Shown here: positions 12,954-64,000 of the stretch, piece by piece
Position numbering within the stretch: the first letter of the stretch is position 1
Layout: every line of letters starts with the position of its first letter
Assembly (NCBI GenBank): GCA_041649715.1
Contig: JBAZMP010000003.1
Coordinates: 36,155 to 100,154 of the forward strand
Source of the DNA: Patescibacteria group bacterium
GTDB taxonomy: Bacteria > Patescibacteriota > Patescibacteriia > JAXHNJ01
Direction: 5' to 3'
Length of the DNA stretch: 64,000 nt
Notes under the pieces: generated by a model
The model's database searches: none
What the model was told of the DNA's origin: nothing
What the model saw: the letters and a program-made list of their open reading frames with translations, nothing else
Position numbers and translations under genes: made by a program

Positions 12954-14714
12954 GTGGCCTTATTCTCTTTTACCCTAACCGACAATCCCTACCGCCGGTT
13001 GGGAAAAATGCTGGAAAAAGAAAAAATCCTCCCAAGGAACGATTTTAAAGAAATCTTTGAGCAATCTAAAAAGGAAAACCGGCCGTTTTTAGCCGTTCTT
13101 TGGGAAAAAGAAGGCCTGCCGGAAGATAAATTGAACCAAGCCTTGGCCCGCTATTTCCGATTACCTGAAGTGCGCTTGCGTGAAAAAACCATTGATCCCG
13201 AGGTTTTAAACCTTATCCCGAAGGAAATAGCCGAGCATGGTTCGATCGTTATCTTTAAAAAAATAAAGAACATCATCTACGTGGCCACGACCAACCCGGA
13301 AAATAAGTTGGTCTTTAATTTTATTAAGAAGAAAACCGGCCTTGACCCGAAAATTTTCATCACCTCCCCGGCTGACCTGAAACAGGCGATAAAAAAATAC
13401 AAAACGGAGATCGCCTCGGAATTTGAGAAAATAATCGACGACAGCATCAAACAGGTTCTCAGCTTGCACGAAAACACGGAAAAACTCGCCCAAGTCGTCC
13501 CGACGATTAAAATGGTTGATACCATAATCGAACAAGCTCTTTTGCAGAACGCTTCCGACATTCATATCGAACCGGTCGCCGAAAAAATAAGCGTGCGTTA
13601 CCGGATCGACGGCCTCCTGCAAAAAATAGTCACTCTCCCCAAACAAATACTCCCGACCGTTGTCACCCGCATAAAAATTCTCGCTAACCTAAAAATTGAC
13701 GAGCACCGCCTGCCTCAAGACGGACGTTTTAAATTCGAATTCAATGAACGGCCGGTCGCCATCCGCGTTTCGGTCATGCCCACCCTCAACGGGGCCAAAG
13801 TAGTTTTGAGACTTTTGGATGTCAAGGAAAAACAATTCAGCCTCCGACGCCTAGGACTGAATGTTAAGGATTTTGTCACGGTCAAGAAAGAAATGATCAA
13901 ACCCCACGGCTTGATCCTCGTGACCGGGCCGACCGGCAGCGGAAAAACAACCACTCTCTATGCAATTTTAAGGATGCTGAATAAAGAAGGCGTGAATATT
14001 TGCACGATTGAAGACCCGATTGAATACGGCCTGGAAGGGATCAATCAAACGCAGATCAATCCCAGCGCCGGCTTAACATTTGCCTCAGGTTTGCGTTCTC
14101 TCGTCCGCCAGGACCCGGACATCATCATGGTCGGCGAAATCCGTGACTTGGAAACGGCCGACATGGCGATCAATGCAGCGATGACCGGCCATCTGGTCTT
14201 ATCAACCCTGCACACCAATTCCGCATTTCTTGTCATCCAGCGCCTGATCGAAATGGGTATTAAGCCGTTTTTGGCCGCTTCCGTGATCAATGTCGTCATG
14301 GGTCAAAGACTGGTGAGAAAAATCTGCCGCTTCTGCAAATCGCAAAGAGGGTCAGCCGAAAAAATCCTGGCCCAATACGGTGGATATTTCGACCTGGAAA
14401 ATGCCCTGGCAAAATTTAAACGACTTAAACTGCTTCCCCCGGTCGGCTATAACTCCCTTTCCGAAATTAAATTTGCCCACGGCAAGGGCTGCCCGAAATG
14501 CCACGGCACCGGTTATTTGGGGCGCATCGGCATCTATGAAATACTGAAGAACAGCTCCCATATTTACCAGACGATATTAAAAGATCCGACGGCCAACGCC
14601 ATCAAAAATGAGGCCTTGAAACACGATATTCTGACCATGACCGAAGACGGTCTTTTAAAAGTGCTAAAAGGTCAAACAACGTTTGAAGAGGTTTTAAGAG
14701 TAACTAAAGAATAA
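12954..14714 (+). CDS. pilB: Type IV pilus assembly ATPase (GspE/PilB family).
   Basis: N-terminal GspII_E domain, Walker A (GPTGSGKTTTLYA), Asp/His boxes and a C-terminal zinc-binding tetracysteine (CPKCHGTGY). The start may be the internal ATG near 13008. Confidence 0.9.
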   Translation: MALFSFTLTDNPYRRLGKMLEKEKILPRNDFKEIFEQSKKENRPFLAVLWEKEGLPEDKLNQALARYFRLPEVRLREKTIDPEVLNLIPKEIAEHGSIVIFKKIKNIIYVATTNPENKLVFNFIKKKTGLDPKIFITSPADLKQAIKKYKTEIASEFEKIIDDSIKQVLSLHENTEKLAQVVPTIKMVDTIIEQALLQNASDIHIEPVAEKISVRYRIDGLLQKIVTLPKQILPTVVTRIKILANLKIDEHRLPQDGRFKFEFNERPVAIRVSVMPTLNGAKVVLRLLDVKEKQFSLRRLGLNVKDFVTVKKEMIKPHGLILVTGPTGSGKTTTLYAILRMLNKEGVNICTIEDPIEYGLEGINQTQINPSAGLTFASGLRSLVRQDPDIIMVGEIRDLETADMAINAAMTGHLVLSTLHTNSAFLVIQRLIEMGIKPFLAASVINVVMGQRLVRKICRFCKSQRGSAEKILAQYGGYFDLENALAKFKRLKLLPPVGYNSLSEIKFAHGKGCPKCHGTGYLGRIGIYEILKNSSHIYQTILKDPTANAIKNEALKHDILTMTEDGLLKVLKGQTTFEEVLRVTKE

Positions 14715-14715
14715 T

Positions 14716-15924
14716 ATGCCCATTTTTTCCTATACCGGCCTGGATAAAAACAATAATTACGTCAAAGCCACCCTGGAGACAGGTAATCTTAAAAAAGCGG
14801 CCCAACTCCTGGAAAAAGAAGGAGTGATACTCGTTAATATCCAAGAAGAAAGAACCCTCAAAAAAACCCTAACCGAACGGCTATTTAACAACGTTACCCG
14901 CCTGGACAAGATCTTTTTCACGCGTCATCTTTCCACCATGCTGGAATCCGGCATTGCTTTGGACCAAGCGATAAAAATCATTGCCGAGCAGACAACCAAT
15001 AAAACCTTTAAAACCACCCTATACGACATCTATAAACGCCTGCAGGGCGGCGAATCATTATTCGAATGTTTGGCCGCGCACCCGAAATATTTTTCCAAAT
15101 TTTACATCAATATCATCCGGGTCGGCGAAAAAAGCGGAAAATTAGACGAAGTTCTGGCCCAGCTTCTGGAGCAGCAGGAAAGCGACTACGAGCTTATTAA
15201 CCGCGCCCGCGGCGCCATGGTTTATCCGGCGGTGATCATCAGCGCTCTTATTGTCATGGTCGTCTTTATGATGACTTTCGTCATTCCGAAGGTCACCAGC
15301 GTTTTGAGCGAATACCACGTCAAGCTGCCGCTGGCTACCCGCATCCTGATCGGCTTGAGCAATTTTATCCTTCATTACGGCTATTATGTTTTTCCCGCCT
15401 TGATTGTTTTGGTCTATCTCTTCTTAAGATGGATAAAAAGCAAAAAGGGCAAAAAACGCTGGGATGCTTTCCTCCTGAAAATCCCGCATTTAAAAAAGAT
15501 CATGGCGGAATTCAATCTTGCCCGCTTTGCCCGATCGATGAGCGCCCTGATGAAAAGTGGGGTGCCGATAGACGAATCCCTGGCTTTGGCGGCCGATGTA
15601 TCCTCTAACACTTTTTACGCCGAATCATTGGCTTCCGGCATCCAGTTTGTCCGCAAAGGAATACCCTTGGCTGAGATTTTAAAAGGCCACCCGAAGCTTT
15701 ATCCCCCTATCACCGTTCGCATGATCGAGGTGGGCGAAAAAACCGGCAAGCTCGACCACATGCTTTCCCGCCTGGCCACTTTTTACGAAAAATCCGTGCT
15801 CAATACGATTGCCAACCTCGCTTCGGTCATCGAGCCGGTTCTCCTGCTCTGCATCGGCCTGGCCGTGGCCTTTGTCGCCATTTCCGTCCTGACCCCCATT
15901 TGGAAATTTTCCGAAACCGTATAA
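14716..15924 (+). CDS. pilC: Type IV pilus platform protein (GspF/PilC family).
   Basis: Duplicated T2SSF domain architecture with 3 TM segments. Immediately follows pilB. Confidence 0.9.
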   Translation: MPIFSYTGLDKNNNYVKATLETGNLKKAAQLLEKEGVILVNIQEERTLKKTLTERLFNNVTRLDKIFFTRHLSTMLESGIALDQAIKIIAEQTTNKTFKTTLYDIYKRLQGGESLFECLAAHPKYFSKFYINIIRVGEKSGKLDEVLAQLLEQQESDYELINRARGAMVYPAVIISALIVMVVFMMTFVIPKVTSVLSEYHVKLPLATRILIGLSNFILHYGYYVFPALIVLVYLFLRWIKSKKGKKRWDAFLLKIPHLKKIMAEFNLARFARSMSALMKSGVPIDESLALAADVSSNTFYAESLASGIQFVRKGIPLAEILKGHPKLYPPITVRMIEVGEKTGKLDHMLSRLATFYEKSVLNTIANLASVIEPVLLLCIGLAVAFVAISVLTPIWKFSETV

Positions 15925-15947
15925 TTAATTAATTTTTTTATAATTTT

Positions 15948-16403
15948 ATGTCACATCTTAAAAAAGGTTTTACTCTCGTCGAAGCGCTCTCGGTGATCGG
16001 CGTTCTTGCCGTCCTGACGGCCATGGCGGTCCCGTCCTACGCCTCGATGAGAAAAAACGTGGTCTTCGGCAATACATTTCAAGAAATAGCCAGTGCCTTA
16101 AGAATGGCCCAGAATAATTCGATGACCGCTCAAGACGGCAATATGTGGGGGGTTAAATTTAATAATGACAGTTATATTATGCTGGAATGTAATGATGAAA
16201 ATTGTTCAAGCCCCTCGAATACAGACACCTATCCGGTCAGCGGCCTAAAAATAATCACGCCGGCCACAAATCCTATTATTTTTAACCGCCTATCAGGCAC
16301 TCTTTACGGGGCCGCGGTCTCCCAAACAATCGCCGTTGAGAATGAGGCGGGATCAAGTGTAAAGAATATCTTCGTTGAACCAAATGGAAAAATTTCCCCA
16401 TAA
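15948..16403 (+). CDS. Type IV (pseudo)pilin with a prepilin N-methylation motif.
   Basis: KKGFTLVEALSVIGVLAVL class III signal peptide with conserved Glu+5. Confidence 0.8.
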   Translation: MSHLKKGFTLVEALSVIGVLAVLTAMAVPSYASMRKNVVFGNTFQEIASALRMAQNNSMTAQDGNMWGVKFNNDSYIMLECNDENCSSPSNTDTYPVSGLKIITPATNPIIFNRLSGTLYGAAVSQTIAVENEAGSSVKNIFVEPNGKISP

Positions 16404-16848
16404 AAATATGCGGAATTCGTTTTCAATAAAAAATAAAGGCTTTTCCGTCGTTGAGATTTTGGTCGCCGTCAGTATGGCCGGTATTATGATCGTTTCCATA
16501 GGCGGTGCCCTGAATTCTATCCATAAATTGAACGCCAGGAGCGAAATAAATGAAAAAGCGATCGCCTACGCGAAACAAACCCTGGAATTAGTCACCGATT
16601 TGAAAAATCATGATTTTGACGCGGATTTATCCAGCGTCGACAGTCTCGCCCTGGAAACCGGGTTTACACGGCCAAGCCCCGCCGTGACCGTGACTCCTCT
16701 TTGCCGTGACGGCAACGGGAACATAATGTCCGCCTGCGGCGCGAGCGTGCCAGACGGCAAAACCGAAAAAGTAACGGTCATTATCCAGTATTCGGGAACG
16801 GAAAAAGCTAAATTATCGACTATTTTTACTGATTGGCGAATTCCATGA
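16375..16848 (+). CDS. Minor pilin-like protein (prepilin-type N-terminal domain).
   Basis: NKGFSVVEILVAVSMAGIMIV prepilin motif. The true start is probably internal (around 16408). Confidence 0.65.
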   Translation: MNQMEKFPHKNMRNSFSIKNKGFSVVEILVAVSMAGIMIVSIGGALNSIHKLNARSEINEKAIAYAKQTLELVTDLKNHDFDADLSSVDSLALETGFTRPSPAVTVTPLCRDGNGNIMSACGASVPDGKTEKVTVIIQYSGTEKAKLSTIFTDWRIP

Positions 16849-17366
16849 AAAAAGTATTCAAAAAAAATAACAAGGGATTCACCCTGATTGAGCTTCTAAT
16901 ATACATGGGCATTTCCACGATTATTGTCGTTGTTTTGACCAGCTTTATGGCTGATGTGTTAAAGAATGCGGCCAAGACAAAAATAACAAAAGAGGTGCAG
17001 CAGAATGCCAGATTTATTACGGCAAAAATTACCCAAGAAATAAGAAACGCCCAAAGTATTAATATCGATACTTTTGACCTTACCTTGAATAATAAAACTC
17101 TATTTTCCTTAAAAGACGACGGCGTCTATTACGATGATGATGTCAGCGACGCTGATCCGGCTTTAAAACTCACGAGCAACCAGGTTAAAATCAACCGAGA
17201 TGCTGACCCAAACGATCCTACGCAATATAATTCACAATTCAAGCCTGTCTCGGGCACAGTTTTTATCAAATTAACGGTGGAACAAGCCAGCCCCAATGCG
17301 AGAAGATCCGAGAGCAGCCAAATCACCCTTTCTTCAGCGGCTGTCCCAAGGGCCTCACTCTATTAA
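16833..17366 (+). CDS. Minor pilin-like protein (prepilin-type N-terminal domain).
   Basis: NKGFTLIELLIYMGISTIIVVVL prepilin motif. Confidence 0.7.
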   Translation: MANSMKKVFKKNNKGFTLIELLIYMGISTIIVVVLTSFMADVLKNAAKTKITKEVQQNARFITAKITQEIRNAQSINIDTFDLTLNNKTLFSLKDDGVYYDDDVSDADPALKLTSNQVKINRDADPNDPTQYNSQFKPVSGTVFIKLTVEQASPNARRSESSQITLSSAAVPRASLY

Positions 17367-17379
17367 ATACTTATTTGGC

Positions 17380-18843
17380 ATGAATATAAGGATATATAAA
17401 AATCAAAGAGGTGTCGTCGCCATTCTTACCTTATTGGCGGTTTCGGTTTTGGCTTTATTAATTATGACCACGATGAGCGTGCTGGCGGCGGATGAATTAA
17501 AAATGTCAATCTCAGAAAGAAATACGGAGAAAACCTTTTACGCGGCTGAGACCGGAATAAACGAGGCGTTGTATCGATTAAGCAAGGATGGTCTTCCCGC
17601 TAATTTTTGTTTATCCTTTGACGGAACTGCTATACCCTGTGCGAATTCCGAAAAAATTGAAGTGAGTTTTTCACTTGATCCAAATAATCCCTATAATCGC
17701 ATTATCAACTCACGAGCCCAAGATATCACCGGCAAAGAAAGAACTTTAAGTTTTACGGCCCAAACGAACAGTTATGCCGCCGGCTTGGATTTTGCCGTTC
17801 ATACTGGAACTGGCGGATTGGAAATGGAGAATAATACAAGGGTTTACGGAAACATTCACAGCAACGGGAATATCTACGGCAGTACCGGTGGCACACCAAA
17901 AAGCGAAATTTACGGAGACATTAAAGTTTCGGGCATAACCACTAATTTGGTCCAAACTTTTTCCTATGATCTACGTTATGCCGACAACACTCTTTTTAAA
18001 CACCTTAACGGAAATCTCCATGCTCATGAAATTGTTGATTCAAAAATCAGCGGCGACGCGTGCTACCAAATTATCAACTCCTCCACGGTTAGCGGTTCAT
18101 CAGAAGTATACGGCTCTAATCCCAATTGTATCAGTGATCCTGCTCCCGCTACTTTTCCCATTACTGATCCTCAAATAGAAAATTGGACAAATGAAATTAA
18201 AGACCATGTAAATGAGGCTATATTAAATGGAACGGGACAATTATTCCCAACAAATAAAACGGTAAATACCTCCGAAACTTGGGGTCCGACCAAGGTAAAC
18301 GGCAATCTAATTATTCAAGGCAGCCCCCAGGGAGTAAATAAGCTAGTTATGAATGATAATCTGTGGGTGATAGGAAATTTAGAAATACAAAATAACGGTC
18401 AGCTCACTTTATTCAAAAATATCTTGGTCAGCGGCAACATAATATTTTACCAAAACTCCACCATCAATCTTGACCCAAGCGTGGGTGAAAACGACGGTTT
18501 AATAATCGTTAATGGAAAAACTGAAATAAAAAACGTGGTTAGCATAAACGGATCAGGGAATAGTAAAAGTTCACTTATGTTAATTTCTACCAACAACTCT
18601 TTGGATACCGATAATCCAGCTATACTCGCTAACAATGTTTCTAATGGTGTTTTATACTATGCGAAAGACGGAAAAATAACCATTGATCAAAACGGCGATT
18701 TATGCGGCACTATTGCCCACACTATCCATTTGAAAAATGGGGCAACTGTTAGATATAAGCCAGACAAACAGATACTGGATATACCACCAAACGATGATAA
18801 TTATACTTTTGGTCCTGTGTCTGGTTCCTGGCAGGAAAAATAG
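17380..18843 (+). CDS. PilX-like large pilus-associated protein (N-terminal TM/pilin-like helix, beta-rich C-terminal region).
   Basis: MNIRIYKNQRGVVAILTLLAVSVLALLIMT resembles PilX N-terminal domains. It is the last gene of the pilus operon. The track ORF begins earlier, at 17296. Confidence 0.5.
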   Translation: MNIRIYKNQRGVVAILTLLAVSVLALLIMTTMSVLAADELKMSISERNTEKTFYAAETGINEALYRLSKDGLPANFCLSFDGTAIPCANSEKIEVSFSLDPNNPYNRIINSRAQDITGKERTLSFTAQTNSYAAGLDFAVHTGTGGLEMENNTRVYGNIHSNGNIYGSTGGTPKSEIYGDIKVSGITTNLVQTFSYDLRYADNTLFKHLNGNLHAHEIVDSKISGDACYQIINSSTVSGSSEVYGSNPNCISDPAPATFPITDPQIENWTNEIKDHVNEAILNGTGQLFPTNKTVNTSETWGPTKVNGNLIIQGSPQGVNKLVMNDNLWVIGNLEIQNNGQLTLFKNILVSGNIIFYQNSTINLDPSVGENDGLIIVNGKTEIKNVVSINGSGNSKSSLMLISTNNSLDTDNPAILANNVSNGVLYYAKDGKITIDQNGDLCGTIAHTIHLKNGATVRYKPDKQILDIPPNDDNYTFGPVSGSWQEK

Positions 18844-23869: not shown

Positions 23870-23873
23870 ATCC

Positions 23874-24566
23874 ATGGAAAAACCAGTGGAAAAAACTCCC
23901 GCCGAAAGCGATCCCCGCATTCGGCGGGAGAAAGGTAAATACAGATACTTGAAAATCGGGATAATAATTATTATCCTGGCGGGTATCGGAATTCTGGCCT
24001 ATCCTTTCATCCCCTCCTTAAAGTATGCTTTGAGCAAACCGGGCAATACCTACCCTTACGAAACGAGGTTGCTTTCAGGCAACATAAATCTTGAGGCCCT
24101 GCCGGTGAATAAAAATGTGAATCTTGGCTCTCTGCCGGATATCAAGACCTTAAAAAGAATTCCCGACGATAATCGGCTGGTCATCCCTAAAATCGGCGTG
24201 GATGTCGCTATCGTGGAAGGACAAAACGAAGAAACGGCCTTGCTTAAAGGCGCCTGGCGCAACCCGAAAACTTCCAACCCGGAAAATGGCGGCAATACGG
24301 TCATTTCGGGCCATCGGTTTCGCTTTCGGCCGCCGAATAACACCACCTTTTATCTTTTGGATAAACTGGCGGTCGGCGATACTTTCATCATTTACTGGAA
24401 AGGGGTAGAATACGATTATCAGATTTCGGAAACAAAGATTGTCGCTCCGACGGCAGTAGAAATACTTAATAACACGGCGAACTCCCAAGTAACCCTGTTC
24501 TCATGCACTCCCCTCTTTACCACCAGACAAAGGCTGGTGGTGATCGGACAGCTGGTTGAATGGTAA
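23874..24566 (+). CDS. Sortase family transpeptidase.
   Basis: N-terminal TM anchor, catalytic His (TVISGHR), TLFSCTP (TLxTC) active-site Cys motif and a downstream Arg. It starts 5 nt after the adhesin stop. Confidence 0.85.
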   Translation: MEKPVEKTPAESDPRIRREKGKYRYLKIGIIIIILAGIGILAYPFIPSLKYALSKPGNTYPYETRLLSGNINLEALPVNKNVNLGSLPDIKTLKRIPDDNRLVIPKIGVDVAIVEGQNEETALLKGAWRNPKTSNPENGGNTVISGHRFRFRPPNNTTFYLLDKLAVGDTFIIYWKGVEYDYQISETKIVAPTAVEILNNTANSQVTLFSCTPLFTTRQRLVVIGQLVEW

Positions 24567-24590
24567 ATTAATATTTAAATAGACAAAAAA

Positions 24591-25610
24591 ATGAAAAAAT
24601 TAATGCTGGCCATTACGCTTCTTGCTTTGGCGCTTTCGCCCATAAAGGGAGAGGCTAAAAATCACGGGGGCGTCGCCTCAATCGAAATTTCGCCTGTTAA
24701 CGGCGAAGTGAAGGCGGGAGAGAGTCTGACCCTAAGGCTTACCGCCAAAGACAGCGCCGGTCTGACTTGGGACATCTCGCCAAACGCTTATTTCCAAATC
24801 AATGACCCCCGCGGTTCCCTCAAGAATAATAAATATCTGGCCGGCAAAATCGGCACCTGGAATTTAAGCGTGACCTATGGTAATTTCAGCGCGAAGACAA
24901 CCGTCAAGGTACTGCCAGGCAACCTTGCCACTATCATCATAAATCCGAATTCAAAACCTGAAATCATCGATTTGGGAGCGACCAGAACTTTTAACGCCCA
25001 GGGTTTTGATAAGATGAATAACCTTTTGACAGGCTTGCTTTTTACCTGGTCACAGGAAGATGACTTAGGTGATATCAACCAAAAAGGCGTTTTTACCGCC
25101 AAAGACACCGGCGAGGGAAAAATAATCGCGAGCCTTAACGGTGTTTCCGGCTTCTCGGCCATAAAAGTCAAAGAAAAAACATTGTTGCCGGCGGCCGCGA
25201 ATACAACCAACACCAATACCGCCAGACCAACAACGGCCGTGAATACCAACGCCAATGATAATAATAACAGCAATGTCAACGGCCAGGTCGCCGGAGTGGA
25301 GACAGCCGCGGCCGCGGAAACGACGGAGACAAAAGATGAATGTAAAACGCTCGCCTGGTACTGGTGGGTTTTGATCATGCTCGCGTTTTTCGCCGTTTTG
25401 ATCCTCTATTACTTTTTAATCCGCAAATCAAAAGGCGGCTGGTGGTGGATTTTCCCGCTGATTTTAATAGCCGGCGTAGTCTGGCTCTATTACCAGTACT
25501 CCTGCAACAAATACGGCTGGTGGCCCTGGGTTTCCATCATTATGGCCATACTAATCTCACTTTTCCGGCCAAAGAAGTATTTTGAAGAGCCAAAATCTCC
25601 GACTTTCTAA
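24591..25610 (+). CDS. Secreted Big_2 (bacterial Ig-like) domain protein with a Trp-rich C-terminal double TM anchor.
   Basis: Signal peptide, two Ig-like repeats (IEISPVNGEVKAGESLTL..., IIINPNSKPEIIDLGATRTFNAQGFD...), an Asn/Thr-rich linker and two C-terminal TM helices. Confidence 0.6.
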   Translation: MKKLMLAITLLALALSPIKGEAKNHGGVASIEISPVNGEVKAGESLTLRLTAKDSAGLTWDISPNAYFQINDPRGSLKNNKYLAGKIGTWNLSVTYGNFSAKTTVKVLPGNLATIIINPNSKPEIIDLGATRTFNAQGFDKMNNLLTGLLFTWSQEDDLGDINQKGVFTAKDTGEGKIIASLNGVSGFSAIKVKEKTLLPAAANTTNTNTARPTTAVNTNANDNNNSNVNGQVAGVETAAAAETTETKDECKTLAWYWWVLIMLAFFAVLILYYFLIRKSKGGWWWIFPLILIAGVVWLYYQYSCNKYGWWPWVSIIMAILISLFRPKKYFEEPKSPTF

Positions 25611-53399: not shown

Positions 53400-56300
53400 A
53401 TGAATGAAACTGGGGCAAAAGAAAACCAACCAGACGTTTTAGACGTTTTAGAAACAAGCGCTGAAGAACCAAAAAAGAAAGAAACGCAAGAGGATATCTC
53501 ACGAGATTCTCTCATTCCCCGGCTGTCTAACCAAAAAGCAGCCATGGATTTTAATATTGAATCAAGGGCGAGGTTAATCCAAAGTATTTTTCACTCTCTA
53601 GAAAATGGAGTTGAACCCGGTGTAACATTGCCAGAAAAGGAAATGCTAAAACCCGAGGCAGTACTAAGAAAAATTGAAAAAAACATATCTCGACTATCTA
53701 ATCCCACTATTGATGATATCTCGAGTGTGCTTACCTCCTCGGGCATGGAAATGGCTGGTATCAAGTCAGGTCTTCTTATCGATAGAACTAAAATCGAATC
53801 TCTTGCTAATGATAAAAAAAATCTAGGTGATAAAAATGATGAATTTTCCGCCAGATTGGCCGCCGAAGAGAAAAGAAATTTTTTTGTTAAAATATTCCGG
53901 GGGAAAATGAGACGGGAGTTGGCAGACCAGATTAAAGAAATATCCGTTCAAAGGACGAAAACTGAATTCCTGATTGAAGATAGCCAGTCAGCGGCTAATG
54001 ACACCGAAAGTGTAATAGAACGTATATCAAAGCTAAGACAAGACCTTTGCCTTAAAGCCTCTCAACAACTATTCCAGGAAGTAATTGAACAGTATAACCA
54101 GTTCCATGAAAATTTAACGACTCCCGAGGTAAAACAAGCGTTAAATAGCGATCTAATCGCCAAAGAAGTGGAACCAGCCCTTTGGATATTGATCTCCAAC
54201 GAAGATCTTACCGTAGAAGAGGCAAACGAATATATTGAACTCTTAAAAGCTCAGTTGGCCGAAGACAACCAAAGGCATTGGGATGAACCGCCCGAAAAAG
54301 AAGAAGTCAGGCGCCAGCGAAGAAAAAGAATAGAAGAACTTAACCAACAATCAGATTATCAGCTGAGAGATATCGGCAATCGAGTTGACCGCCAAGAATC
54401 TTTAGCGGCGGATAATCACTATAACGAGATATTTAATTTTCTGCTCCGGGAAGAAACAAGAAGCAAGGTAGAACAGCTCTATAATTCACTGAAAGATTCT
54501 TTAAGCCCTGAATTACAAAACGAATTTGAAAGAATATTTACTGAAAAAAACATGATTTTAGATAATAATAATTTACCAATTAAAGAATTCGACAGACTTA
54601 CGGGGCTGGAACGATGGCAGATCGTTAAAAATTTTACCAAAAATTCAAATATCATATCAAGAGAAACTTTTTCGCGTACGGAAAAAATCATCATCAACAG
54701 GCTATTCAAGGAAGAGCTTTTTCCCGGCGGCCGAGAATCATGGTCGGGAACCTACGCCGCGATAAAACTCGGGGCGCTTGAAAATCCCGAGGCATTACCG
54801 CTTATGCTAAGACACATTGAATCTTCAGGCGTCGGACATACTAATAATGCGGTCGCATATGAAATGGAAAAACTGATGCAAAAAAGCAATCCGACTGAAC
54901 TTCAACAAGTCTTGGAAGCTTTACCTAAAAATAAAAGAGCTTTACTCCAAACCATGGTTGACGAAAATTCATACATGAGCCGTTTCGGCCGTTGCAACTC
55001 TCGCTATATTACCTGCGATCTTTTGCAAAAAGGCGACATAACGCTTAAACAAGAACAATATGCGAAATTATTAGAAGAGACCGGACTGCCTGAAGAAGAA
55101 TTAGGGGAATTTTATCTTTTATTCGGAGACAGGGAAAAGATATTGGAACAAATCAAAAAAGTGTCTGAACTGGCGGGTGAAGATAAAAAACAAGCAATCA
55201 ATAATTATTTTGAAGTGCTAACTTCGTATATTGAGCCCGAATCCCCGGAATCTCTAAAAATCATTGATGCCTTGTCAAACGAATTGGAGGTTCCCAAAAC
55301 AGATCTTCTTGTTCGTTGCGTGGAAAAATTTGAGAAACCTCGCCGAAACCATATACTAAGAAAAGTGGTATCACCCGATGATAAGGATTATGCGAGCTTC
55401 CCTCTCGCTTTTTCCAAACTATATTTTGGCTTAGAAAAAGACTCTCTTGAAAAATTAGCTAAAGTTTATCAAACAAAAAGTTTACAAACCAGCAGCCTCG
55501 AAAGAGAATTTTTTCTTGAAGGGCTTTTATTACTCAAGGGGAAGGAAAACGGCAAAATCGTTCTGGATATTTTATTAGATAGATACAAAGGGGCAAAAGA
55601 TGATCCCAAAAGAATGAGACGCATATTTCAAACTCTTTCGACGCTTGATGGTTTTGGCGAATACGGCCTGGCGGTACCAAATCCAGACAAAGAAATGAAG
55701 ATAAACCAAGAAATCTTTAATCTGCAAAATCAATATTCACAAACACAAGATAAAGCGGGGCGAAAAGTAATAAAAAATCGGATTGAAGGGTTAAATAGCG
55801 ACCGGCAAAATCTGACGGGATTAAAAGGTATTGAAGACGCCATGATAGAAAAAGTGGTCTCGGTCGCGTGCCGACGGCTGGAATTACCGCCAGAATTTCA
55901 AAAAAAGATAGAGAATAATTTAGACGAGTTGCTGAAAAACGGCGTATTTGAAATAGTCCCAACTTTAGCGGGAAAATATGAAGAAAAGGACGAAAGAGAA
56001 ACTAAAAATCTTCTAAAAATAATAACTTCTCATATTATAGAAGGTGACTTCAAATCATGGCGATATTCACACGAGCGAAGCGAAAAACAATTATCTGGCT
56101 TGACAGAAGAACAAAAAGATTATTGGATAAAAGCATCAGAACCCGTCACTCTTGAAATCGAATCCTCTAGAGACGAGAAAGAAAAACGGGCAGAAGAGTT
56201 GAGGGCAGCCCAAGAAATAATTTTAAATGCCAAAGAGCATATAATAAATTCGCAACCGGACTTTGATTTTTCGAAAGAAAGAGCACGAACACTGACAGAA

Positions 56301-57131
56301 AAAACAAAGGAATTAACGGAAAAAATTAAATTAGCTACTTCTCCAGACGAAAAACAAAAATTGATTGCTGAAAAAAGGAATGCTCAAGCGATAGCGACAT
56401 TAATCAATGGCCTCCTGGAAATTGAAAACGCAACCCCGCAATCTTTCGCCCGCGAAAAAATAGTTACACAAGCTAGAGAATTATCCGAAAAAATGGTCGA
56501 GCTAAATATGCCGCTAGCCAATCTGGATTTGGAACAAATGGAGAAAATATTTACCGTTGGGGATATAAAAAGCGTAAAAGCTTACGAATCGGATGATCCG
56601 CTAACCTTACTAAATATAGGGGTGGAACCGCAAGAAACCTGCCAATCGTGGAGAAACGGAGGATTTAATGAATGTTTACTGGCTTATGTGGCTGATAGTA
56701 ATAAAAAGGTTATTAATGTCGCCGATGAAGAAGGCCGAATTATCGCTCGCAGCGTTATCAAACTTAATGATTACAAAAATGAAAACGACACCGAATCTAA
56801 AACACAGAAAAAAACTATACTTTTGGAAAAACCGTATTCTTTGCGGCCGAATATAGAAGTTTACCGCGCTTTTGCGCGCGTACTATTAGCAAAAGCCCAG
56901 GGTCTTGATTCTTCGATTACTCTAAGTAATGGCTTGGATCAAGACATTATCAAAATTTTTGAAGAAGAGGCGCGCGCTTTCGGATATGAAATAAATGAGG
57001 GTAAATTTGAGATTTATATACCGCCGAGCTTGAACAAATACGAATATAGCGATTCATTAGGCGGTAAAATCGAATGGTTTGACAGATATCAAACAATTAA
57101 TGCAACGACATTTGAAAAAATTAAGTCATAA
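53400..57131 (+). CDS. Large (1243 aa) cytoplasmic hypothetical protein. Lys/Glu-rich, predicted helical/coiled-coil, no recognisable catalytic motif.
   Basis: Uninterrupted 3.7-kb ORF with no signal peptide. AT-rich (about 38% GC). Immediately downstream of tRNA-Pro and followed (4-nt gap) by a Rieske protein gene. Confidence 0.6.
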   Translation: MNETGAKENQPDVLDVLETSAEEPKKKETQEDISRDSLIPRLSNQKAAMDFNIESRARLIQSIFHSLENGVEPGVTLPEKEMLKPEAVLRKIEKNISRLSNPTIDDISSVLTSSGMEMAGIKSGLLIDRTKIESLANDKKNLGDKNDEFSARLAAEEKRNFFVKIFRGKMRRELADQIKEISVQRTKTEFLIEDSQSAANDTESVIERISKLRQDLCLKASQQLFQEVIEQYNQFHENLTTPEVKQALNSDLIAKEVEPALWILISNEDLTVEEANEYIELLKAQLAEDNQRHWDEPPEKEEVRRQRRKRIEELNQQSDYQLRDIGNRVDRQESLAADNHYNEIFNFLLREETRSKVEQLYNSLKDSLSPELQNEFERIFTEKNMILDNNNLPIKEFDRLTGLERWQIVKNFTKNSNIISRETFSRTEKIIINRLFKEELFPGGRESWSGTYAAIKLGALENPEALPLMLRHIESSGVGHTNNAVAYEMEKLMQKSNPTELQQVLEALPKNKRALLQTMVDENSYMSRFGRCNSRYITCDLLQKGDITLKQEQYAKLLEETGLPEEELGEFYLLFGDREKILEQIKKVSELAGEDKKQAINNYFEVLTSYIEPESPESLKIIDALSNELEVPKTDLLVRCVEKFEKPRRNHILRKVVSPDDKDYASFPLAFSKLYFGLEKDSLEKLAKVYQTKSLQTSSLEREFFLEGLLLLKGKENGKIVLDILLDRYKGAKDDPKRMRRIFQTLSTLDGFGEYGLAVPNPDKEMKINQEIFNLQNQYSQTQDKAGRKVIKNRIEGLNSDRQNLTGLKGIEDAMIEKVVSVACRRLELPPEFQKKIENNLDELLKNGVFEIVPTLAGKYEEKDERETKNLLKIITSHIIEGDFKSWRYSHERSEKQLSGLTEEQKDYWIKASEPVTLEIESSRDEKEKRAEELRAAQEIILNAKEHIINSQPDFDFSKERARTLTEKTKELTEKIKLATSPDEKQKLIAEKRNAQAIATLINGLLEIENATPQSFAREKIVTQARELSEKMVELNMPLANLDLEQMEKIFTVGDIKSVKAYESDDPLTLLNIGVEPQETCQSWRNGGFNECLLAYVADSNKKVINVADEEGRIIARSVIKLNDYKNENDTESKTQKKTILLEKPYSLRPNIEVYRAFARVLLAKAQGLDSSITLSNGLDQDIIKIFEEEARAFGYEINEGKFEIYIPPSLNKYEYSDSLGGKIEWFDRYQTINATTFEKIKS

Positions 57132-57486: not shown

Positions 57487-57522
57487 GAAAGCCCCGATTT
57501 TCCGAGGCTTTCTTTTTTATAT
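57487..57522. terminator. Bidirectional intrinsic terminator (gaaagcc-ccgattttccg-aggctttc with A-run 5' and T-run 3') between the convergent Rieske and copA genes.
   Basis: 7-bp stem flanked by aaaaaaa and tttttt. Confidence 0.5.
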
Positions 57523-59739
57523 ATGCTTTTGTCCTCGGTATCCCTTCATTAGAAGCGCGTTCAAAACCACACTGACCGAAGAAAAAGCCATGGCGGCCGC
57601 GGCAAACGCCGGGTTTAAAAGCCAGCCGGTCAAAGGATATAAAACTCCCGCGGCAATGGGAATGGTAAAGATATTATAAATAAAAGCCCAAAAAAGATTC
57701 TGTTTGATTTTTTTCAGGGTATAATTGCTTAAATCCATCGCCTTTATCACCTGCCGCAGATCATCTTTGATTAAAATAATGTCTCCGGTTTCCATGGCCA
57801 CATCCGTGCCGGAACCTAAAGCCAGCCCCAAATCCGCCTGCGCCAAAGCTGGCGCGTCATTAATACCGTCGCCCACCATAGCCACTATTTTTCCGCCAGC
57901 TTGGAGTTTTTTGATTTCGGCGGATTTATCTTGGGGCAGCACTTCGGCTAATACCTTGTCAATTCCCACTTTTTCGGCGATCGCTCGGCCGACCCGTTTA
58001 TTGTCGCCGGTAATGATCATGACTTCCTTATTCATTTTATGCAGAAGATCGACCGCATCTTTTGAATTTTCTTTAAGAGTATCTGCGACACCAATTAACC
58101 CGATTATTTCCGAGTCGTGTGCGAGTATCATGGCCGTCTGCCCTTGATTTTCTAAAGCCGCCAGCTTATCCTCAACTAAGGAAAAATCAATCTCATTATC
58201 AAGCATTAATTTTCTGGTTCCTAATATAATATTATGATTGTTTAATTCGCCTGTAACTCCTTGGCCGGGTACCGCCTTAAAATTTTTAACCGCTGACATT
58301 TCAATTTTTTCTTCTTTCGCTTTTTTAACGATGGCTTGGGCCAAAGGATGTTCGGAATTATTCTCAATGGATGCGGCTATTTGCAGGATACTTTTAACCT
58401 TTAACTGTGAACTTGGAACCCGAAAAATTTCAGTGACAATCGGCTCTCCACGAGTTAAGGTGCCAGTTTTATCAAAAACAACCGTGTTAATTTTGTGGGC
58501 CGTTTCGAGAGCTTTGGCGTTTTTTATCAAAATCCCTTGTTGCGCGGCCAAACCCGTCCCCATCATTACCGCCACGGGGGTGGCCAGTCCCAAGGCGCAG
58601 GGGCAAGCGATGATTAAAACAGAAACCAGAACGGATAGGGCAAAAACTAAAGATTGACCGGCGATCAGCCAGACAATAAACGACAAAAGACTAAGGCCGA
58701 TTACGGCCGGCACAAAATAATAGGCGACTTTGTCGGCCAGGGCTTGAATCGGGGCCTTGGAGCCCATCGCCTCTTCCACTAAACGGATGATCTGTGAAAG
58801 CATAGTCGCTTCCCCGACCGCCAGGGCTTTTATTTTTAACACGCCGTTTTGATTGACTGTGGCTCCGATTACTTTGTCGCCGGCTCTTTTTTCTTTCGGC
58901 AGACTTTCGCCGGTAATCGCTTTTTCATCCACACTGGAATCACCTTCAACCACGACGCCGTCCACCGGGATTTTTTCGCCGGGTCTGACTAAAACAATAT
59001 CACCGATTTTAACTTCGTTTATTTTAATTCTTACTTCTTGGCCGTTTTTGATGATAACCGCTTCCTTTGCCTGTAAACCGGCCAGTTTTTTAACGGCCTG
59101 CCCCGTCCGGCCTTTGGTCAGGCCTTCTAGATATTTGCCTAACGAAATAAAAATCAAAATAAAAATTGCACTTTCATAATATATGGTAGGCATGCCAATG
59201 GATCCCTTGAGCAAGAAAATGACGGAAACAATTACGCTATAAAAATAAGCCACGACGGTGCCCATGAAAATCAAAGAATCCATGTTCGGCGATAATCTTA
59301 CTAATCCCTTGAGACCGGTGCGTAAAAGATTAAAATTTACGCTCATCACCATAGTCGCCAGAATAAATTCCGCATAAGGGCGGTAAGTCTCCCCTAAAAC
59401 CGGCAAACCGAGCATTTCTCCCATCACGAGATAAATAACCGGCAAGCCGAAAATCAGCGACAGGAAGAAACTTTTTCTTAATTTTTTCACGTCGCCGACT
59501 TCATGATGATGCTCGTGGCTATCCCCTTCCTCAACCACTCCATACCCCAGCTTCTTGATTTCCGACTTTATCTTATCCAGAGAGATCAAGTCCATATCAA
59601 ACTCTACTTGCGCTTTTTCCGAGGCGAAATTGATGTTAAAAAGTTTGATTCCCGGCATTTGGCGCAAAGCGTGTTCGATATTAACCGCGCAGGTCACGCA
59701 GCTCATGCCGGTTAATTTTATGCTGATTTTATGTATCAT
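57517..59739 (-). CDS. copA: Copper-translocating P1B-type ATPase.
   Basis: N-terminal HMA domain (GMSCVTCA), CPC motif ([13 protein letters not shown]), DKTGTLT phosphorylation site, [10 protein letters not shown]. The track ORF extends to 59841; ATG 59739 is preferred as it avoids overlap. Confidence 0.9.
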
Positions 59740-59743
59740 AAAT

Positions 59744-61120
59744 TTAGTTTTTCGCCACCACCTCAATGGTGCCGACCACCATCCCCATCCAGCAGCTGAA
59801 TTTGTATTTGCCGGCAGGCGGCGGCTGAAATTCCTTGACACTCGTTTTCCCGACCGTCAAATCGATCTGCCCGAGAAAAAGGCTTTTTCCAATCACCTTG
59901 TTGGTACAGCCCGAAGTGCCGGTATCCTGGATCTCCCAACGGACCGGAATTCCTTCTTTAACTTTAAAATAATTCGGGAAATAACCGGCGGCCGAAGCCT
60001 CCATTTTTATGACCTGTTTGCCGGAGATTACAGGCGGGAAACCATCCTCGCTGGCCTGCGCCTGATTATTGGTTTTAAAGTTTAAATTGTTCAAAGAAGG
60101 CCAGCCCAAAACGTTAAATTGAGCGTTGAGGTTAAATAAGGCGAAAAACAAGACTAATACCCCGGCGGTTTTCAAAAAAAGATTGGCAAACTTCTTATGA
60201 CTGAAGAATTTCACGCCAGCCAGACCGATCAACAATAAAGGAATGGTCGTGCCTAAAGCGAAAAAAAACATAATTAAAGCGCCCTGCCAGAAACTGCCGG
60301 AAAGTAGTGCCAAGCCTTGACTAGTGATGGTAAAACCGCAAGGCAAGAAAAAAGTGGCTGCTCCGGCCAGCAAGGGAAAATACCGACCTTTGAATTTTCT
60401 TTCATCGCTTAGACGGCTAGTCAAACCCTTGGGCAAAGAAAATTGAAAAGCTCTTAGAGCTTTTACGCCCAGCATCTGCAGGCCCAGGAGAAACATCAAC
60501 ACGGAAACCGCCATCACCAAAATAGAGGTGAAAGTCAGGGATATTTTAAGCTGACCGCCAAGCACGCCTAAAACACCGCCCAAAACCGCATAAGAAATCA
60601 GCCGGCCGGCGTTAAACATCAAATGCGGCTGTAATTTTTTAAAAGTGGAATCCGTCTGGCCGTAAAGATCCAGCCATTGCTTGGACAAAGACAATATAAT
60701 CCCACCGACTAAAGCGGCGCAGGAGGTCAGACCGGCAAGCCCCCCGAAAGCGAAAAAAGTGGGCAGCGAGGACTGCGCCTGGACATTAACTAAGGAGCTG
60801 AAGCCCAGACGGTTCAGCAGGAAGAAAAACAAGATTATTCCCAAAGAAATTAGAGAAATTTTCAAAATACTTGTCTTAGATTTTTCCCCCATATTTTCTG
60901 CTTCTAACTCAAAAAAAGTGTAGCCGTCTTTTTGAAAAAGTTTATTTAAATCCGCTAACGAGGGAATTTCCCCTTCTATCGCTGCCTGCTCTTTTTTCAA
61001 GGAAACATTAACTTTCTTCACGCCTTTGATTTCAGAGATTTTTCTTTCCACCAATAAAACGCAGGATGAGCAGTGCATCCCTTTGATTCCGTAGATCTTT
61101 TTCCGAGTATTAATTTCCAT
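59744..61120 (-). CDS. HMA-domain membrane protein with a DsbD/CcdA-like TM core and a C-terminal cupredoxin-like domain.
   Basis: N-terminal [11 protein letters not shown] motif, about 8 TM helices, and a C-terminal beta-rich domain with Cys/His/Met (GCTNKV...SCWMGMVVG). Confidence 0.55.
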
Positions 61121-61393
61121 TTATTTGTTGCTGATTTTAGTCACCTTTAAAATCTCGGCGATCATTTCCTGCTTTCTCTTTTCGTTTTTGGCGGCCATGG
61201 CCGTTTTAAAACAGGTATTCAGGTGATTCTCCATCAGCATCTGATGGGCGGATTTTAGTAATCCGATCACCGCCAGATTCTGCTGCATGATGTCGATGCA
61301 ATAGCGGTCCTCTTCAACCATCCTGATAATCTTGGCGATTACGCTTCCCGCTTTCTTGAAATTAATGAGCGCATTTTCTTTTTGGCTAATCAT
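61121..61393 (-). CDS. csoR: CsoR/RcnR/FrmR family metal-sensing transcriptional repressor.
   Basis: DUF156 architecture with RYCIDIMQQ...H...NTC (C-H-C metal ligands). First gene of the copper operon. Confidence 0.75.
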   Translation of the reverse strand: MISQKENALINFKKAGSVIAKIIRMVEEDRYCIDIMQQNLAVIGLLKSAHQMLMENHLNTCFKTAMAAKNEKRKQEMIAEILKVTKISNK

Positions 61394-61483: not shown

Positions 61484-61600
61484 TGTTTAGATCGGATTAA
61501 GAATCCGATCTACTCGAACACGTACAAAATTGACTTGGTATTGCGTGAAGACGGGATTCAGAATCCCGCCAGCAGGGCAGGTCGGATTCTGAATCCGACC
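61484..61600 (-). repeat. Cluster of three related hairpins (gatcggatt-aagaa-tccgatc; gggattc-agaa-tcccgcc; ggtcggattc-tgaa-tccgacc) 3' of gene 61662..62996, members of the GGATT repeat family.
   Basis: Three perfect or near-perfect inverted repeats within 120 nt sharing a cggattc/gaatccg core. A T-rich tract lies at 61612..61650. Confidence 0.4.
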
Positions 61601-61661
61601 TTCTCAAATAAAAAAAGAAGACCCCTTTTTACGGAGTCCTCTTTTTATATCTATTTGTAAA

Positions 61662-62996
61662 TTATTTTTTCAGGAGGAAAGCGAGGCCGCTCAAACCGAT
61701 TAAAACGATCAAATAACTCGTGATATCGGTGCCGGCTTTGGGCAAAGTTTCCTCTTCTACTGTTTCAGCCGCTACCTGGGCGGTATCTTCCGCGCCGGCG
61801 ACCATACCTTCGACGACTTGATCTTTTATTTCGGTGGCGTTATCCGGTTGGCTGACAACGGCTGGCTCGTTCTTCGGCTCAGATTTGGGCTCATCTGAAG
61901 GAGCCGGTAAACCTTCTTCTTCCTCTTCTTCAACTGCTTCAACCACCGTATTTTCCTTATCATTATCTTCTGTCTCCTGATTTACGTCATTCGTATCATT
62001 ACCCTGGGGCTTAAGAAATTCATAACTCTGGCAAACGAAATCTGTATTGTAATAAAGCTCAAAAATTGCTTTGTCATTTTCATCGACAACTCCGCTCCTG
62101 TCAAAATCCGCTAACGAATTCTGGCCGGCCATATATTCGCTAAAGAAAGACAAGTCAGAAAGATTTACCTTGTAGTCGCCGTTAAAATCCGGGCAAAGAC
62201 CGACAAAATCTATTAGTCTTGACTCATCACAAGTAAAAGATTTGTGGAAATAGAGATTAAAAACCGCAAGGTCATAATCATTGACATAACCGTCGCCATC
62301 GAAATCGGCCAGCGCATGATAATTACCGGCGACGTTTATCTCCGAAGGATAATGACTGACAAACCAGGAGAAATCAGACAAATCAACTGAGTTAGATTCG
62401 TTGGTTTCCACAAAATTCGGAAAACAATCTAAGATTGGTTCTACCGGCGTGCTCACTCCCGTACCGACAGGCACAACGCAGACATAGTTCGTGTTGTAAT
62501 AAACCTCAAAGATAGCCGCGTCAAATTCGTCGACGTCGCCGTCCTGATCAAAATCGGCTTCACCGGTATTGTTTTCAGTTTTATAGGCGGAAAAATAACT
62601 AAGATCAGACAGATCCACAACTCCACTATTGTCATAATCCGGACAAAGAGTATTGAAGTTCGGCACATTCGGACAACCCGCAAACGGCTTGTTAGAATAA
62701 ATCTCAAAAATAGCCCGATCAAAACTATCCACATTACCGTCGCCGTTAACATCCGCTAAAGCATCATAATTGCCGCTTCCGTTTTCCACGGAAGGATAAT
62801 GTGTGCCGAAAAAGCCAAAGTCAGATAAATTGACGTTGCCGTCGTTGTTAAAATCCGGAAAACATCCTGTCCAAGGAGACGCCACCTGAGCCGAGGTTGA
62901 TTTAGGCGCCAAAAAGAGACCCAAGACCGTCATTGAAATGGCGAAAACCGCCACGCTGGCGATATTCAAGGCCTTACTAAGATTGATTTTTTTCAT
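61662..62996 (-). CDS. Secreted surface protein with four dockerin-like Ca-binding repeat pairs and a C-terminal LPKAG sortase sorting signal.
   Basis: Signal peptide; repeats DFNNDGNVNLSDFGFF / DVNGDGNVDSFDRAIFEIY, recurring four times; acidic linker; then EETLPKAG + TM helix + KK. Confidence 0.65.
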   Translation of the reverse strand: MKKINLSKALNIASVAVFAISMTVLGLFLAPKSTSAQVASPWTGCFPDFNNDGNVNLSDFGFFGTHYPSVENGSGNYDALADVNGDGNVDSFDRAIFEIYSNKPFAGCPNVPNFNTLCPDYDNSGVVDLSDLSYFSAYKTENNTGEADFDQDGDVDEFDAAIFEVYYNTNYVCVVPVGTGVSTPVEPILDCFPNFVETNESNSVDLSDFSWFVSHYPSEINVAGNYHALADFDGDGYVNDYDLAVFNLYFHKSFTCDESRLIDFVGLCPDFNGDYKVNLSDLSFFSEYMAGQNSLADFDRSGVVDENDKAIFELYYNTDFVCQSYEFLKPQGNDTNDVNQETEDNDKENTVVEAVEEEEEEGLPAPSDEPKSEPKNEPAVVSQPDNATEIKDQVVEGMVAGAEDTAQVAAETVEEETLPKAGTDITSYLIVLIGLSGLAFLLKK

Positions 62997-63185: not shown

Positions 63186-64000
63186 TTATTCGATTTTTAC
63201 TGAATTATATTTCTTGGCTACCGCTACCTTTCTAAAGCCGTAAGCGCCGAAAGCCGCCACCGTGATCACTAAGACATACATCAGGTAATCCGTGACATTA
63301 CTGCCCGCTTGGGGCAGGGTTTCGTCACCGGCCACTTCGCCTTCATCCTCGGCGCCTAAAACCGCCCCTTTCTTGGTAATCGCAACGTCGGCCGTGTCCT
63401 TGACCGGCTTAAGGTCGTCGGCGGAAACCTGGGCGGTATTAGTGTAGGTGCCAGGCGTAACCGTCGTGCCCGCGGTCACCGTGTAAATGAAATTCATCTC
63501 TTCTCCGACCTTCAGATCATTGAAGAACCAGGAGCCGTCTGAACCGTCGTCATAAGTGAAACCGGCCGGCATGTTGTCCGCTAACCGGACATTATAAGCG
63601 GTGGCGGTCCCTGTATTCTCTATGGTCACGATATAATTGATCTTGCTGCCGGGATAATAAGTGCCGGCTTCCACGGATTTTTCAATCGTGAGTTTGGGAG
63701 AGGTGATCTCCGGCGTTACCGGCGGAGGCAGAGGCTCGGGTTCCGGCTCCACAATGGTGCAGGTGGCCGAGCAGGTCTGGTCGCCGGTGGCACCATCGGT
63801 ATTATCACATTCCTCTGCGCCGTTCTTGATGTTATCGCCGCAGTACGGGACCGTTTCCAAAAGACATTGATCAGTGCAAGTTTGGTGCTCTCCGACGCCA
63901 TCCGTGTTATCGCACTCTTCCGCGCCGTTCTTGATGTTATCGCCGCAAGATGGCCCGGTTACCTCGGCGTAATCGCAAGCCGTGGTGCAATATTGGCAGG
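63186..64000 (-). CDS. Surface protein, 5'-partial: Myxococcus-type Cys-rich repeats (CGDNIKNGAEECDNTDG), a DUF11 domain and a C-terminal LPQAG sortase sorting signal.
   Basis: Frame open to the window end (…CQYCTTACDYAEVTGPSCGDNIKNGAEECDNTDGVGEHQTCTDQCLLETVPYCGDNIKNGAEECDNTDGATGDQTC…). DUF11-like ITKKGAVLGAED...; ETLPQAG + TM + RK tail. Confidence 0.6.
   Translation of the reverse strand, partial: CQYCTTACDYAEVTGPSCGDNIKNGAEECDNTDGVGEHQTCTDQCLLETVPYCGDNIKNGAEECDNTDGATGDQTCSATCTIVEPEPEPLPPPVTPEITSPKLTIEKSVEAGTYYPGSKINYIVTIENTGTATAYNVRLADNMPAGFTYDDGSDGSWFFNDLKVGEEMNFIYTVTAGTTVTPGTYTNTAQVSADDLKPVKDTADVAITKKGAVLGAEDEGEVAGDETLPQAGSNVTDYLMYVLVITVAAFGAYGFRKVAVAKKYNSVKIE

Follow-up and report, generated by a model that had tools for sequence, protein, structure and literature searches.

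We analysed a stretch of 64,000 nucleotides from a bacterium of the Patescibacteria (Candidate Phyla Radiation, CPR), referred to below as the window (contig JBAZMP010000003.1 of assembly GCA_041649715.1, positions 36,155 to 100,154), and in particular a complete gene near its end that encodes a surface protein of 444 residues with four dockerin modules (M1 to M4) and an LPKAG motif close to its C-terminus. The gene had been pointed out in a first-pass annotation, which gave no strand; it lies on the minus strand, and an identical protein is present at NCBI as 'MAG: dockerin type I domain-containing protein [Patescibacteria group bacterium]'. On ENA contig k141_1414341 of ERZ27247363 (235 kb) the order of genes is a sortase, a protein of 916 residues with an LPQAG signal, the LPKAG dockerin protein and then a set of copper genes. 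The dockerin gene looks like a transcription unit of its own, since a promoter-like site (identified by consensus match only) was found upstream and a strong terminator-like hairpin after the stop codon. The repeats are true dockerin modules, distinct from EF-hand noise, and it is very likely that the protein as a whole is a dockerin array with a sortase signal.

The Pfam family Dockerin_1 (PF00404) matched the whole protein in four stretches with 73.4 bits (E 1.6e-20), above the gathering score of 22.9 bits; when the modules were scored singly (Table 1), M3 alone fell marginally under this cutoff with 20.9 bits. No EF-hand family was found at E<=1 in the Pfam scan of the whole protein. Every module consists of two tandem F-hand segments, and seven of the eight 12-residue loops (at residues 48, 82, 120, 148, 231, 270 and 297) fit the pattern D-x-[DN]-x-[DS]-x-x-V-[DN]-x-x-D, by which the modules are predicted to bind Ca2+. 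Matches to sequences in the PDB were exclusively dockerins, at a weak level of similarity (E 3.7e-5 to 0.4), and included the Cel5A dockerin 2vn6_B and the double dockerin of Clostridium thermocellum Clo1313_0689 (8x39, E 3.7e-5), the latter also a precedent for dockerins in tandem. In the full-length AlphaFold2 (AF2) model the modules had predicted local distance difference test (pLDDT) values of 76-97 (90-97 in M4) and two helices each (residues 129-140 and 157-169 in M2), and helices were also modelled for the leader (residues 6-29) and the C-terminal anchor (residues 425-443). A model of M1 alone, built on a 57-row module alignment, reached a pLDDT of 89.1 and a predicted template modelling (TM) score of 0.73, and it matched the dockerins of solved cohesin-dockerin complexes (3kcp_A, 4fl4, 2b59_B and 2y3n_B) with TM-scores of 0.69-0.77 and root-mean-square deviations of 1.1-2.3 Å. 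Generic EF-hand noise, against which the first-pass annotation had cautioned, was ruled out: EF-hand hidden Markov models (HMMs) gave at most 14 bits (cutoffs about 25), and calmodulin-like, troponin and calcineurin B proteins gave TM-scores of only 0.18-0.25 with the single-module model. Both the profile search and the structural model that it had proposed as checks came out in favour of its dockerin assignment.

The modules are 55-66 residues long, 46-58% pairwise identical and arranged in the order A-B-A-B, long alternating with short. In the module alignment M1 is nearest to M3 and M2 nearest to M4, which indicates that a two-module unit was duplicated. The protein contains exactly eight cysteines, one at either end of every module, and in an HMM survey of 152 relatives both bracketing cysteines were present in all 23 of the best-scoring modules. 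The signature of a module is C-(F)PDFNxDxxVNLSDF...ADFDxDGxVDxxDxxIFxxYYNxxFxC, in which the helices after the Ca loops (LSDF..F and IF..YYN) are strongly conserved. From the placement of the cysteines, the N- and C-termini of each module are probably stapled together by a disulfide. Some dockerins have a non-covalent 'clasp', of which such a disulfide would be the covalent analogue. The modules share with the GC-type dockerin family NF041540 the presence of cysteine and a G/x-C start directly ahead of the first Ca loop, but they differ from it in their signature (from C-(F)PDFN to YYNxxFxC) and are not members of it (12.7 bits, cutoff 29).

The C-terminus, ...EETLPKAG-TDITSYLIVLIGLSGLAFLL-KK, has an uncharged, mostly hydrophobic stretch of 20 residues before the two lysines and thus the tripartite composition of a sorting signal, with Ala rather than Thr at position 4 of the motif; the accompanying leader at the N-terminus shows, by inspection, a TSA-type cleavage context. 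Residues L418, P419, A421 and G422 are invariant among four close homologues, and LPKAG is the working motif of the wall-associated protein SasF of Staphylococcus aureus (PMC3398289). Only two open reading frames (ORFs) of the window combine LPxAG with a hydrophobic segment and a basic tail, the dockerin gene and the LPQAG gene next to it. The sortase gene lies about 3.3 kb upstream of the dockerin gene and about 2.3-2.9 kb beyond the end of the window (L001:6108-6740; L and P numbers are our handles for loci and related proteins). Its product of 210 residues matches PF04203 with 62 bits, carries GHS, TLVTC and KR motifs, has a transmembrane segment at the N-terminus only and lacks a DP[WFY] lid; the taxon names attached to its 14 detectable homologues are Patescibacteria only. 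At five further loci, with sortases that are 49-76% identical to it, the sortase is again found near large surface proteins, and in each of the 11 substrates that the six loci link to this sortase clade E-x-LP[KQAR]AG precedes a hydrophobic segment; ten of them (not L018_566) end in a basic tail. The window also contains the wall-synthesis genes for YceG, BacA and UppS, which fit a peptidoglycan wall. A search of the literature on sortases or LPXTG signals in CPR bacteria returned nothing relevant. Given the tripartite tail, the adjacent sortase, the uniform LPxAG signals of the linked substrates and the SasF precedent, the LPKAG tail can credibly be taken for a sortase signal, as the first-pass annotation had supposed, and the adjacent sortase most likely attaches the dockerin protein covalently to the cell wall.

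The leader of the dockerin protein has a pattern that recurs in other sortase substrates. In the form ...K(A/S)(L/I)N(I/V)xSLxxxxxY(T/A)S(M/F)xG(V/L)FFxP(K/N) this pattern is unusually conserved across all sortase substrates of the lineage (62889-62996 on the minus strand and 19424-19570 on the plus strand of the window, L001:7061-7200, and the orthologues in L015, L016 and L018-L020), and it recalls the specialised signal peptides of YSIRK type that occur on surface proteins of Gram-positive bacteria.

Table 1. Features of the dockerin gene, its product and its immediate surroundings (window positions; Dockerin_1 scores are for modules scored singly)
Feature	Position	Strand	Basis
Complete gene for the 444-residue dockerin-array surface protein, with stop codon	61662..62996	minus	ORF list, ATG start
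N-terminal leader / signal peptide, residues 1-36, MKKINLSKALNIASVAVFAISMTVLGLFLAPKSTSA	62889..62996	minus	Basic n-region and hydrophobic helix
Dockerin module M1, residues 45-108, long type A, bracketed by Cys45/Cys108	62673..62864	minus	Dockerin_1, 35.3 bits
Dockerin module M2, residues 118-173, short type B, bracketed by Cys118/Cys173	62478..62645	minus	Dockerin_1, 23.2 bits
Dockerin module M3, residues 191-256, long type A, bracketed by Cys191/Cys256	62229..62426	minus	Dockerin_1, 20.9 bits
Dockerin module M4, residues 268-322, short type B, bracketed by Cys268/Cys322	62031..62195	minus	Dockerin_1, 23.0 bits
Acidic Pro/Glu-rich disordered linker, residues 323-417 (95)	61746..62030	minus	Composition, low pLDDT
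LPKAG pentapeptide, residues 418-422, putative sortase recognition motif	61731..61745	minus	Conservation among homologues
Hydrophobic segment and KK tail, residues 423-444, putative retention part of the sorting signal	61665..61730	minus	Sequence
Intrinsic-terminator-like hairpin and T-run, 16 nt past the stop codon	61612..61646	minus	Consensus scan, 14-pair stem
Promoter-like site TTGACA-17-TAACAT, about 100 nt 5' of the start codon	63097..63125	minus	Consensus scan, 10/12 matches
3' part of the neighbouring 916-residue substrate gene, with LPQAG, transmembrane segment and basic tail	63186..64000, running past the window end	minus	ORF, Pfam

Between the last module and the sorting signal lies a linker that we presume to be a wall-spanning spacer. 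It has no Pfam match, its sequence is divergent among homologues with many insertions and deletions, 94 of its 95 residues (323-416) include 29 Asp/Glu, 5 Lys/Arg and 7 Pro, and the pLDDT of the full-length model is below 50 across residues 325-422.

An exhaustive phmmer search of 1.84 billion representative proteins yielded only 178 matches at E<=1e-3 and 19 at 1e-10, and 92 of the 94 best matches were Dockerin_1 proteins. The commonest partner domains in these 94 relatives were DUF11, FG-GAP, Flg_new, Big_1, PG_binding and subtilase, and the 25 most widespread of the 75 families in them, to which the survey of partners extended, are of adhesin or surface type. In most of the 11 linked substrates Cys-bracketed dockerins are placed at the tip of a DUF11 stalk. 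P0003 (five modules) and P0004 (three modules) carry them N-terminal to a DUF4215 and DUF11 stalk with the same anchor, L018_654 and L020_756 have one Cys-bracketed dockerin at the N-terminal tip of a DUF11 stalk, again with the same anchor, and L019_626 shares this layout with a single N-terminal module that is truncated and matched weakly (7.5 bits). Dockerins are also combined with SpaA/DUF11 in P0019 and P0029, with LAxTG signals, and paralogous stalk proteins carry unrelated tip domains. By analogy, the relatives are built as adhesins are, from an exchangeable head for binding, a stalk and an anchor in the wall; the window protein is a stalk-less variant whose four heads are borne on a flexible acidic tether. 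The role in docking at the cell surface that was suggested at first pass agrees with this architecture.

We therefore consider it rather probable that the gene encodes a covalently wall-anchored, Ca-dependent docking or adhesion protein of Patescibacteria; the adhesion or docking role taken by itself, which follows from analogy, we regard as evenly balanced to slightly favoured. In such a protein, the conserved leader would direct export by Sec, the E-T-LPKAG signal with its hydrophobic segment and KK tail would retain the protein in the membrane, and the sortase would cut LPKAG between Ala and Gly and join the protein to peptidoglycan. The acidic, disordered spacer of 95 residues would display the four dockerin modules outside the wall, each of them a pair of Ca-binding F-hands with disulfide-stapled termini, and the array would serve as a multivalent Ca-dependent protein-docking head. 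Its ligand may be a partner, cohesin-like or of another kind, that is borne by a different cell, as in the attachment of an episymbiont to its host, or a surface or secreted protein of the bacterium itself. Within this explanation the dockerin protein is not part of a cellulosome.

Several observations weigh against this explanation. The four pairs of Ca-binding repeats described at first pass hold for the seven canonical loops but not for the first loop of M3, NFVETNESNSVDLSD, which is degenerate and has an insertion of three residues in the module alignment. The Foldseek E-values of the single-module model were weak (best 8e-3), because the domain has only about 60 residues, and dockerin structures were part of the AF2 training set; for these two reasons the structural comparison is supportive rather than independent. 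The disulfides are proposed from cysteine positions. The curated anchor models TIGR01167 and PF00746 (Gram_pos_anchor) gave no match at E<=1 in NCBIfam and Pfam scans of either the protein or its tail, and the sortase scored under every NCBIfam class cutoff, the best being class C (NF033745) with 51 of the 160 bits required. The adhesion role is read from architecture alone. Finally, no Pfam cohesin (PF00963) was recorded among the called genes of the window (in agreement with the first-pass annotation) and of about 5 kb upstream and 9 kb downstream of it, nor at the five related loci, and direct Pfam scans of the large unannotated proteins, the neighbouring stalk protein included, were likewise free of cohesins. 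Since these scans covered the window, its flanks and the related loci, the absence of cohesin is a local one.

The absence of a cohesin would be accounted for by a more specific form of this explanation, in which Cys-clasped dockerin heads are a host-attachment module shared by ultra-small episymbionts of both domains, Patescibacteria and DPANN archaea, and possibly exchanged between them. In the present clade of Patescibacteria the module would be displayed by the dedicated, unclassified LPxAG sortase; the ligand would be on the host cell, and therefore no cohesin would be found in the symbiont. The window protein would then represent a high-avidity form of the module with four heads and no stalk. 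DPANN archaea are, like CPR bacteria, ultra-small episymbionts. Among 30 relatives five carried taxon names, of which three (P0006, P0012 and P0014) were DPANN archaea (Woesearchaeota MBS3172120.1, Micrarchaeota MFH1107181.1 and Nanoarchaeia HLC73158.1), one was a member of the Patescibacteria and one an unclassified bacterium, and the DPANN proteins are the closest taxon-named multi-dockerin relatives outside the immediate family. With a small sample of five named relatives the CPR/DPANN pattern is no more than suggestive, and the shared module is a tentative proposal that we regard as possible, though on the unlikely side.

Dockerins classically bind cohesins, and the best fold matches of the window modules are dockerins taken from cohesin complexes. 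This could point to a cellulosome of reversed polarity, in which wall-anchored dockerins recruit cohesin-bearing enzymes or scaffoldins, encoded at other places in the genome, for the degradation of polysaccharides. Cohesin- and dockerin-domain proteins were reported to be expressed in a population of Microgenomates, also CPR bacteria (PMC9123182), and we found a cohesin in two of the 94 relatives. Nevertheless, besides the local lack of cohesins, no glycoside hydrolase or other carbohydrate enzyme was recorded among the genes of the window and its flanks, nor at the five related loci, and no carbohydrate-active enzyme (CAZyme) was present among the 25 most widespread of the 75 families in the 94 relatives. 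The dockerins sit on the anchored protein, in which Pfam detected Dockerin_1 only; its remaining 122 residues are without a family match and contain no catalytic or scaffoldin module. We consider a reversed cellulosome unlikely.

Another possibility, which we judge to be improbable to the same degree, is that the array docks onto surface proteins of the bacterium itself, for instance the neighbouring Cys-rich DUF4215/DUF11 stalk protein, or self-associates, with a Ca-dependent surface layer as the result. The 916-residue neighbour has a stalk of DUF4215 (9-11 copies), SpaA_4 and DUF11 domains, topped by an orphan, Cys-containing N-terminal tip domain of about 130 residues (L001:7190-7600, outside the window). 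The adjacency of both substrates is conserved, and dockerin and stalk domains are fused in relatives, a Rosetta-stone pattern. The fusions, however, put the dockerins in the position of the tip domain, which argues for an exchangeable head and not for a ligand of the stalk. Moreover, the stalk orthologues of L015 and L016 have tip domains with no relationship to that of the neighbour or to one another, and the neighbour gave no cohesin signal. A cohesin hidden next door was considered, but no Pfam cohesin is recorded in the called genes of the window and its flanks; the tip domain of the neighbour has no detectable homologue among 5.8 billion proteins and no sequence match in the PDB.

Slightly less probable still is a wall polyanion that binds Ca2+ without any partner and serves mainly in the sequestration or buffering of Ca2+ or other metals or in envelope stabilisation. 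The composition of the protein is in line with such a function, the dockerin region having 50 Asp/Glu against 8 Lys/Arg next to the 29 acidic residues of the linker and the seven canonical Ca loops, and the gene adjoins a conserved operon for a CsoR-like repressor, an HMA-DsbD-cupredoxin protein and a Cu-ATPase. Chelation would not require the degree of conservation seen in the helices after the loops (LSDF..F and IF..YYN), however, and the position of dockerins at the tips of stalks in relatives is suggestive of a binding head. The copper operon has a promoter-like site of its own and is separated from the dockerin gene by the terminator, and for this reason we regard the link between the two as incidental; their juxtaposition is probably inherited synteny and not a functional connection. 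A pilus, in which a polymerising, class C-like sortase would link the dockerin and stalk proteins into a fibre, is suggested by the best partial NCBIfam match of the sortase (class C), the cluster of two substrates and the SpaA_4 domain of the neighbour, but is highly improbable and was ruled out by the class score, far under the class C cutoff, and by motifs, as the short sortase with its N-terminal transmembrane segment only has no DP[WFY] lid and both substrates lack the YPK pilin motif and the E-box.

The window protein, taken as a wall-anchored docking protein, can be compared with several known systems. Non-cellulosomal dockerins are already well established as a class (Peer et al. 2009, cited in PMC10066038), and the window protein resembles them in its tandem array, the lack of a catalytic module and the lack of an obvious cohesin. 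It differs in that the array is short (four modules), every module is bracketed by cysteines and an LPxAG signal is accompanied by a dedicated adjacent sortase. Multi-dockerin surface proteins of ultra-small Omnitrophota were proposed to be adhesins (PMC10066038; bioRxiv 10.1101/2023.11.21.568195), and host attachment in CPR/Patescibacteria is largely unexplained, while a dockerin-domain envelope protein, SEML1_0315, is essential in the one genetically tractable saccharibacterium (PMC10633639). Like these, the window protein comes from an ultra-small, non-cellulolytic bacterium, is secreted or surface-located, contains Dockerin_1 modules and is proposed to act in adhesion; the Omnitrophota examples are, unlike it, giant proteins anchored by transmembrane segments.

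With the classical type I and type II dockerins of clostridial cellulosomes (3kcp, 2b59, 4fl4, 2y3n and 2vn6) the window modules share the duplicated F-hand fold and the canonical pattern of the Ca loops. Different from these are the aromatic-rich helices (LSDF..F / IF..YYN), the absence of symmetric Ser-Thr recognition pairs, the Cys-bracketed ends, the lack of an enzyme or scaffoldin context or a nearby cohesin, and the location of the dockerins on the wall-anchored component. A cellulosome anchor that is itself attached by sortase is ScaE of Ruminococcus flavefaciens, which carries a cohesin; ScaE thus anchors a cohesin, whereas the window protein anchors dockerins. With sortase-anchored surface proteins of Gram-positive bacteria, among them SasF of S. 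aureus, the window protein shares the tripartite signal, a low-complexity wall-spanning spacer and the presence of a sortase in the genome, and its LPKAG is identical to that of SasF (PMC3398289). It differs from these proteins in its Patescibacteria lineage, in a sortase that falls in no curated class and in that LPxAG is the rule (11 of the 11 linked substrates) and not the exception.

The combination of dockerins with a sortase signal is real but unsurprising. Not previously described, as it seems, is the combination of Cys-bracketed modules, a clade-specific unclassified LPxAG sortase and dockerins on the anchored component. Current ideas are not overturned by this finding; it extends the known class of non-cellulosomal dockerins and adds a case of dockerins on the wall-anchored partner, which may be of interest for the engineering of surface display. 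The locus constitutes a compact candidate system (clade-specific sortase, LPxAG signal and dockerin heads, probably disulfide-bracketed, on exchangeable stalks) that could be tested in vitro without culture.

Downstream of the dockerin gene, the copper operon (57517-61393, minus strand) encodes a CsoR-like repressor, an HMA-DsbD_TM-cupredoxin fusion and a P-type Cu-ATPase, and its juxtaposition with the dockerin gene is kept in two other assemblies (L002 and L015). Between the dockerin terminator and the promoter-like site of the csoR-like gene we found three near-perfect palindromes of about 23 nt (61489-61608) with the core CGGATTNNGAATCCG, which is absent from the rest of the window (0.29 occurrences expected by chance). 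The same palindrome is present in the related metagenome-assembled genome (MAG) L015 (12067-12109, 16260-16314 and 17889-17973), at the equivalent spot, after the Cu-ATPase gene and at a Y1 transposase gene, which suggests an element like the repetitive extragenic palindromes (REP) that is tied to a transposase of the REP-associated tyrosine transposase (RAYT) type.

A second sortase gene (23874..24566, plus strand), with a product 27% identical to the first sortase, follows the gene of a 1481-residue protein with six DUF11 domains and SpaA (cluster 19424-25610). The C-terminus of this protein has no LPxAG and reads ...GAVLGLTGPKWYEIFYYLLGLLFVAGGIKAYRK, and it may, judged by these residues, use a different sorting motif. 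The cluster is located directly after type IV pilus-like genes (T2SSE, T2SSF and N_methyl pseudopilins, 12954..18843). In L015 the sortase and the stalk protein are separated by an inserted protein of 1894 residues of the RHS/YD-shell (polymorphic-toxin) type (L015:962-6646), which gives the locus the look of a variable surface or effector island. An ORF of 1243 residues without Pfam match or signal peptide (53400-57131, plus strand) is conserved in L002 and is followed by a gene for a small Rieske protein.

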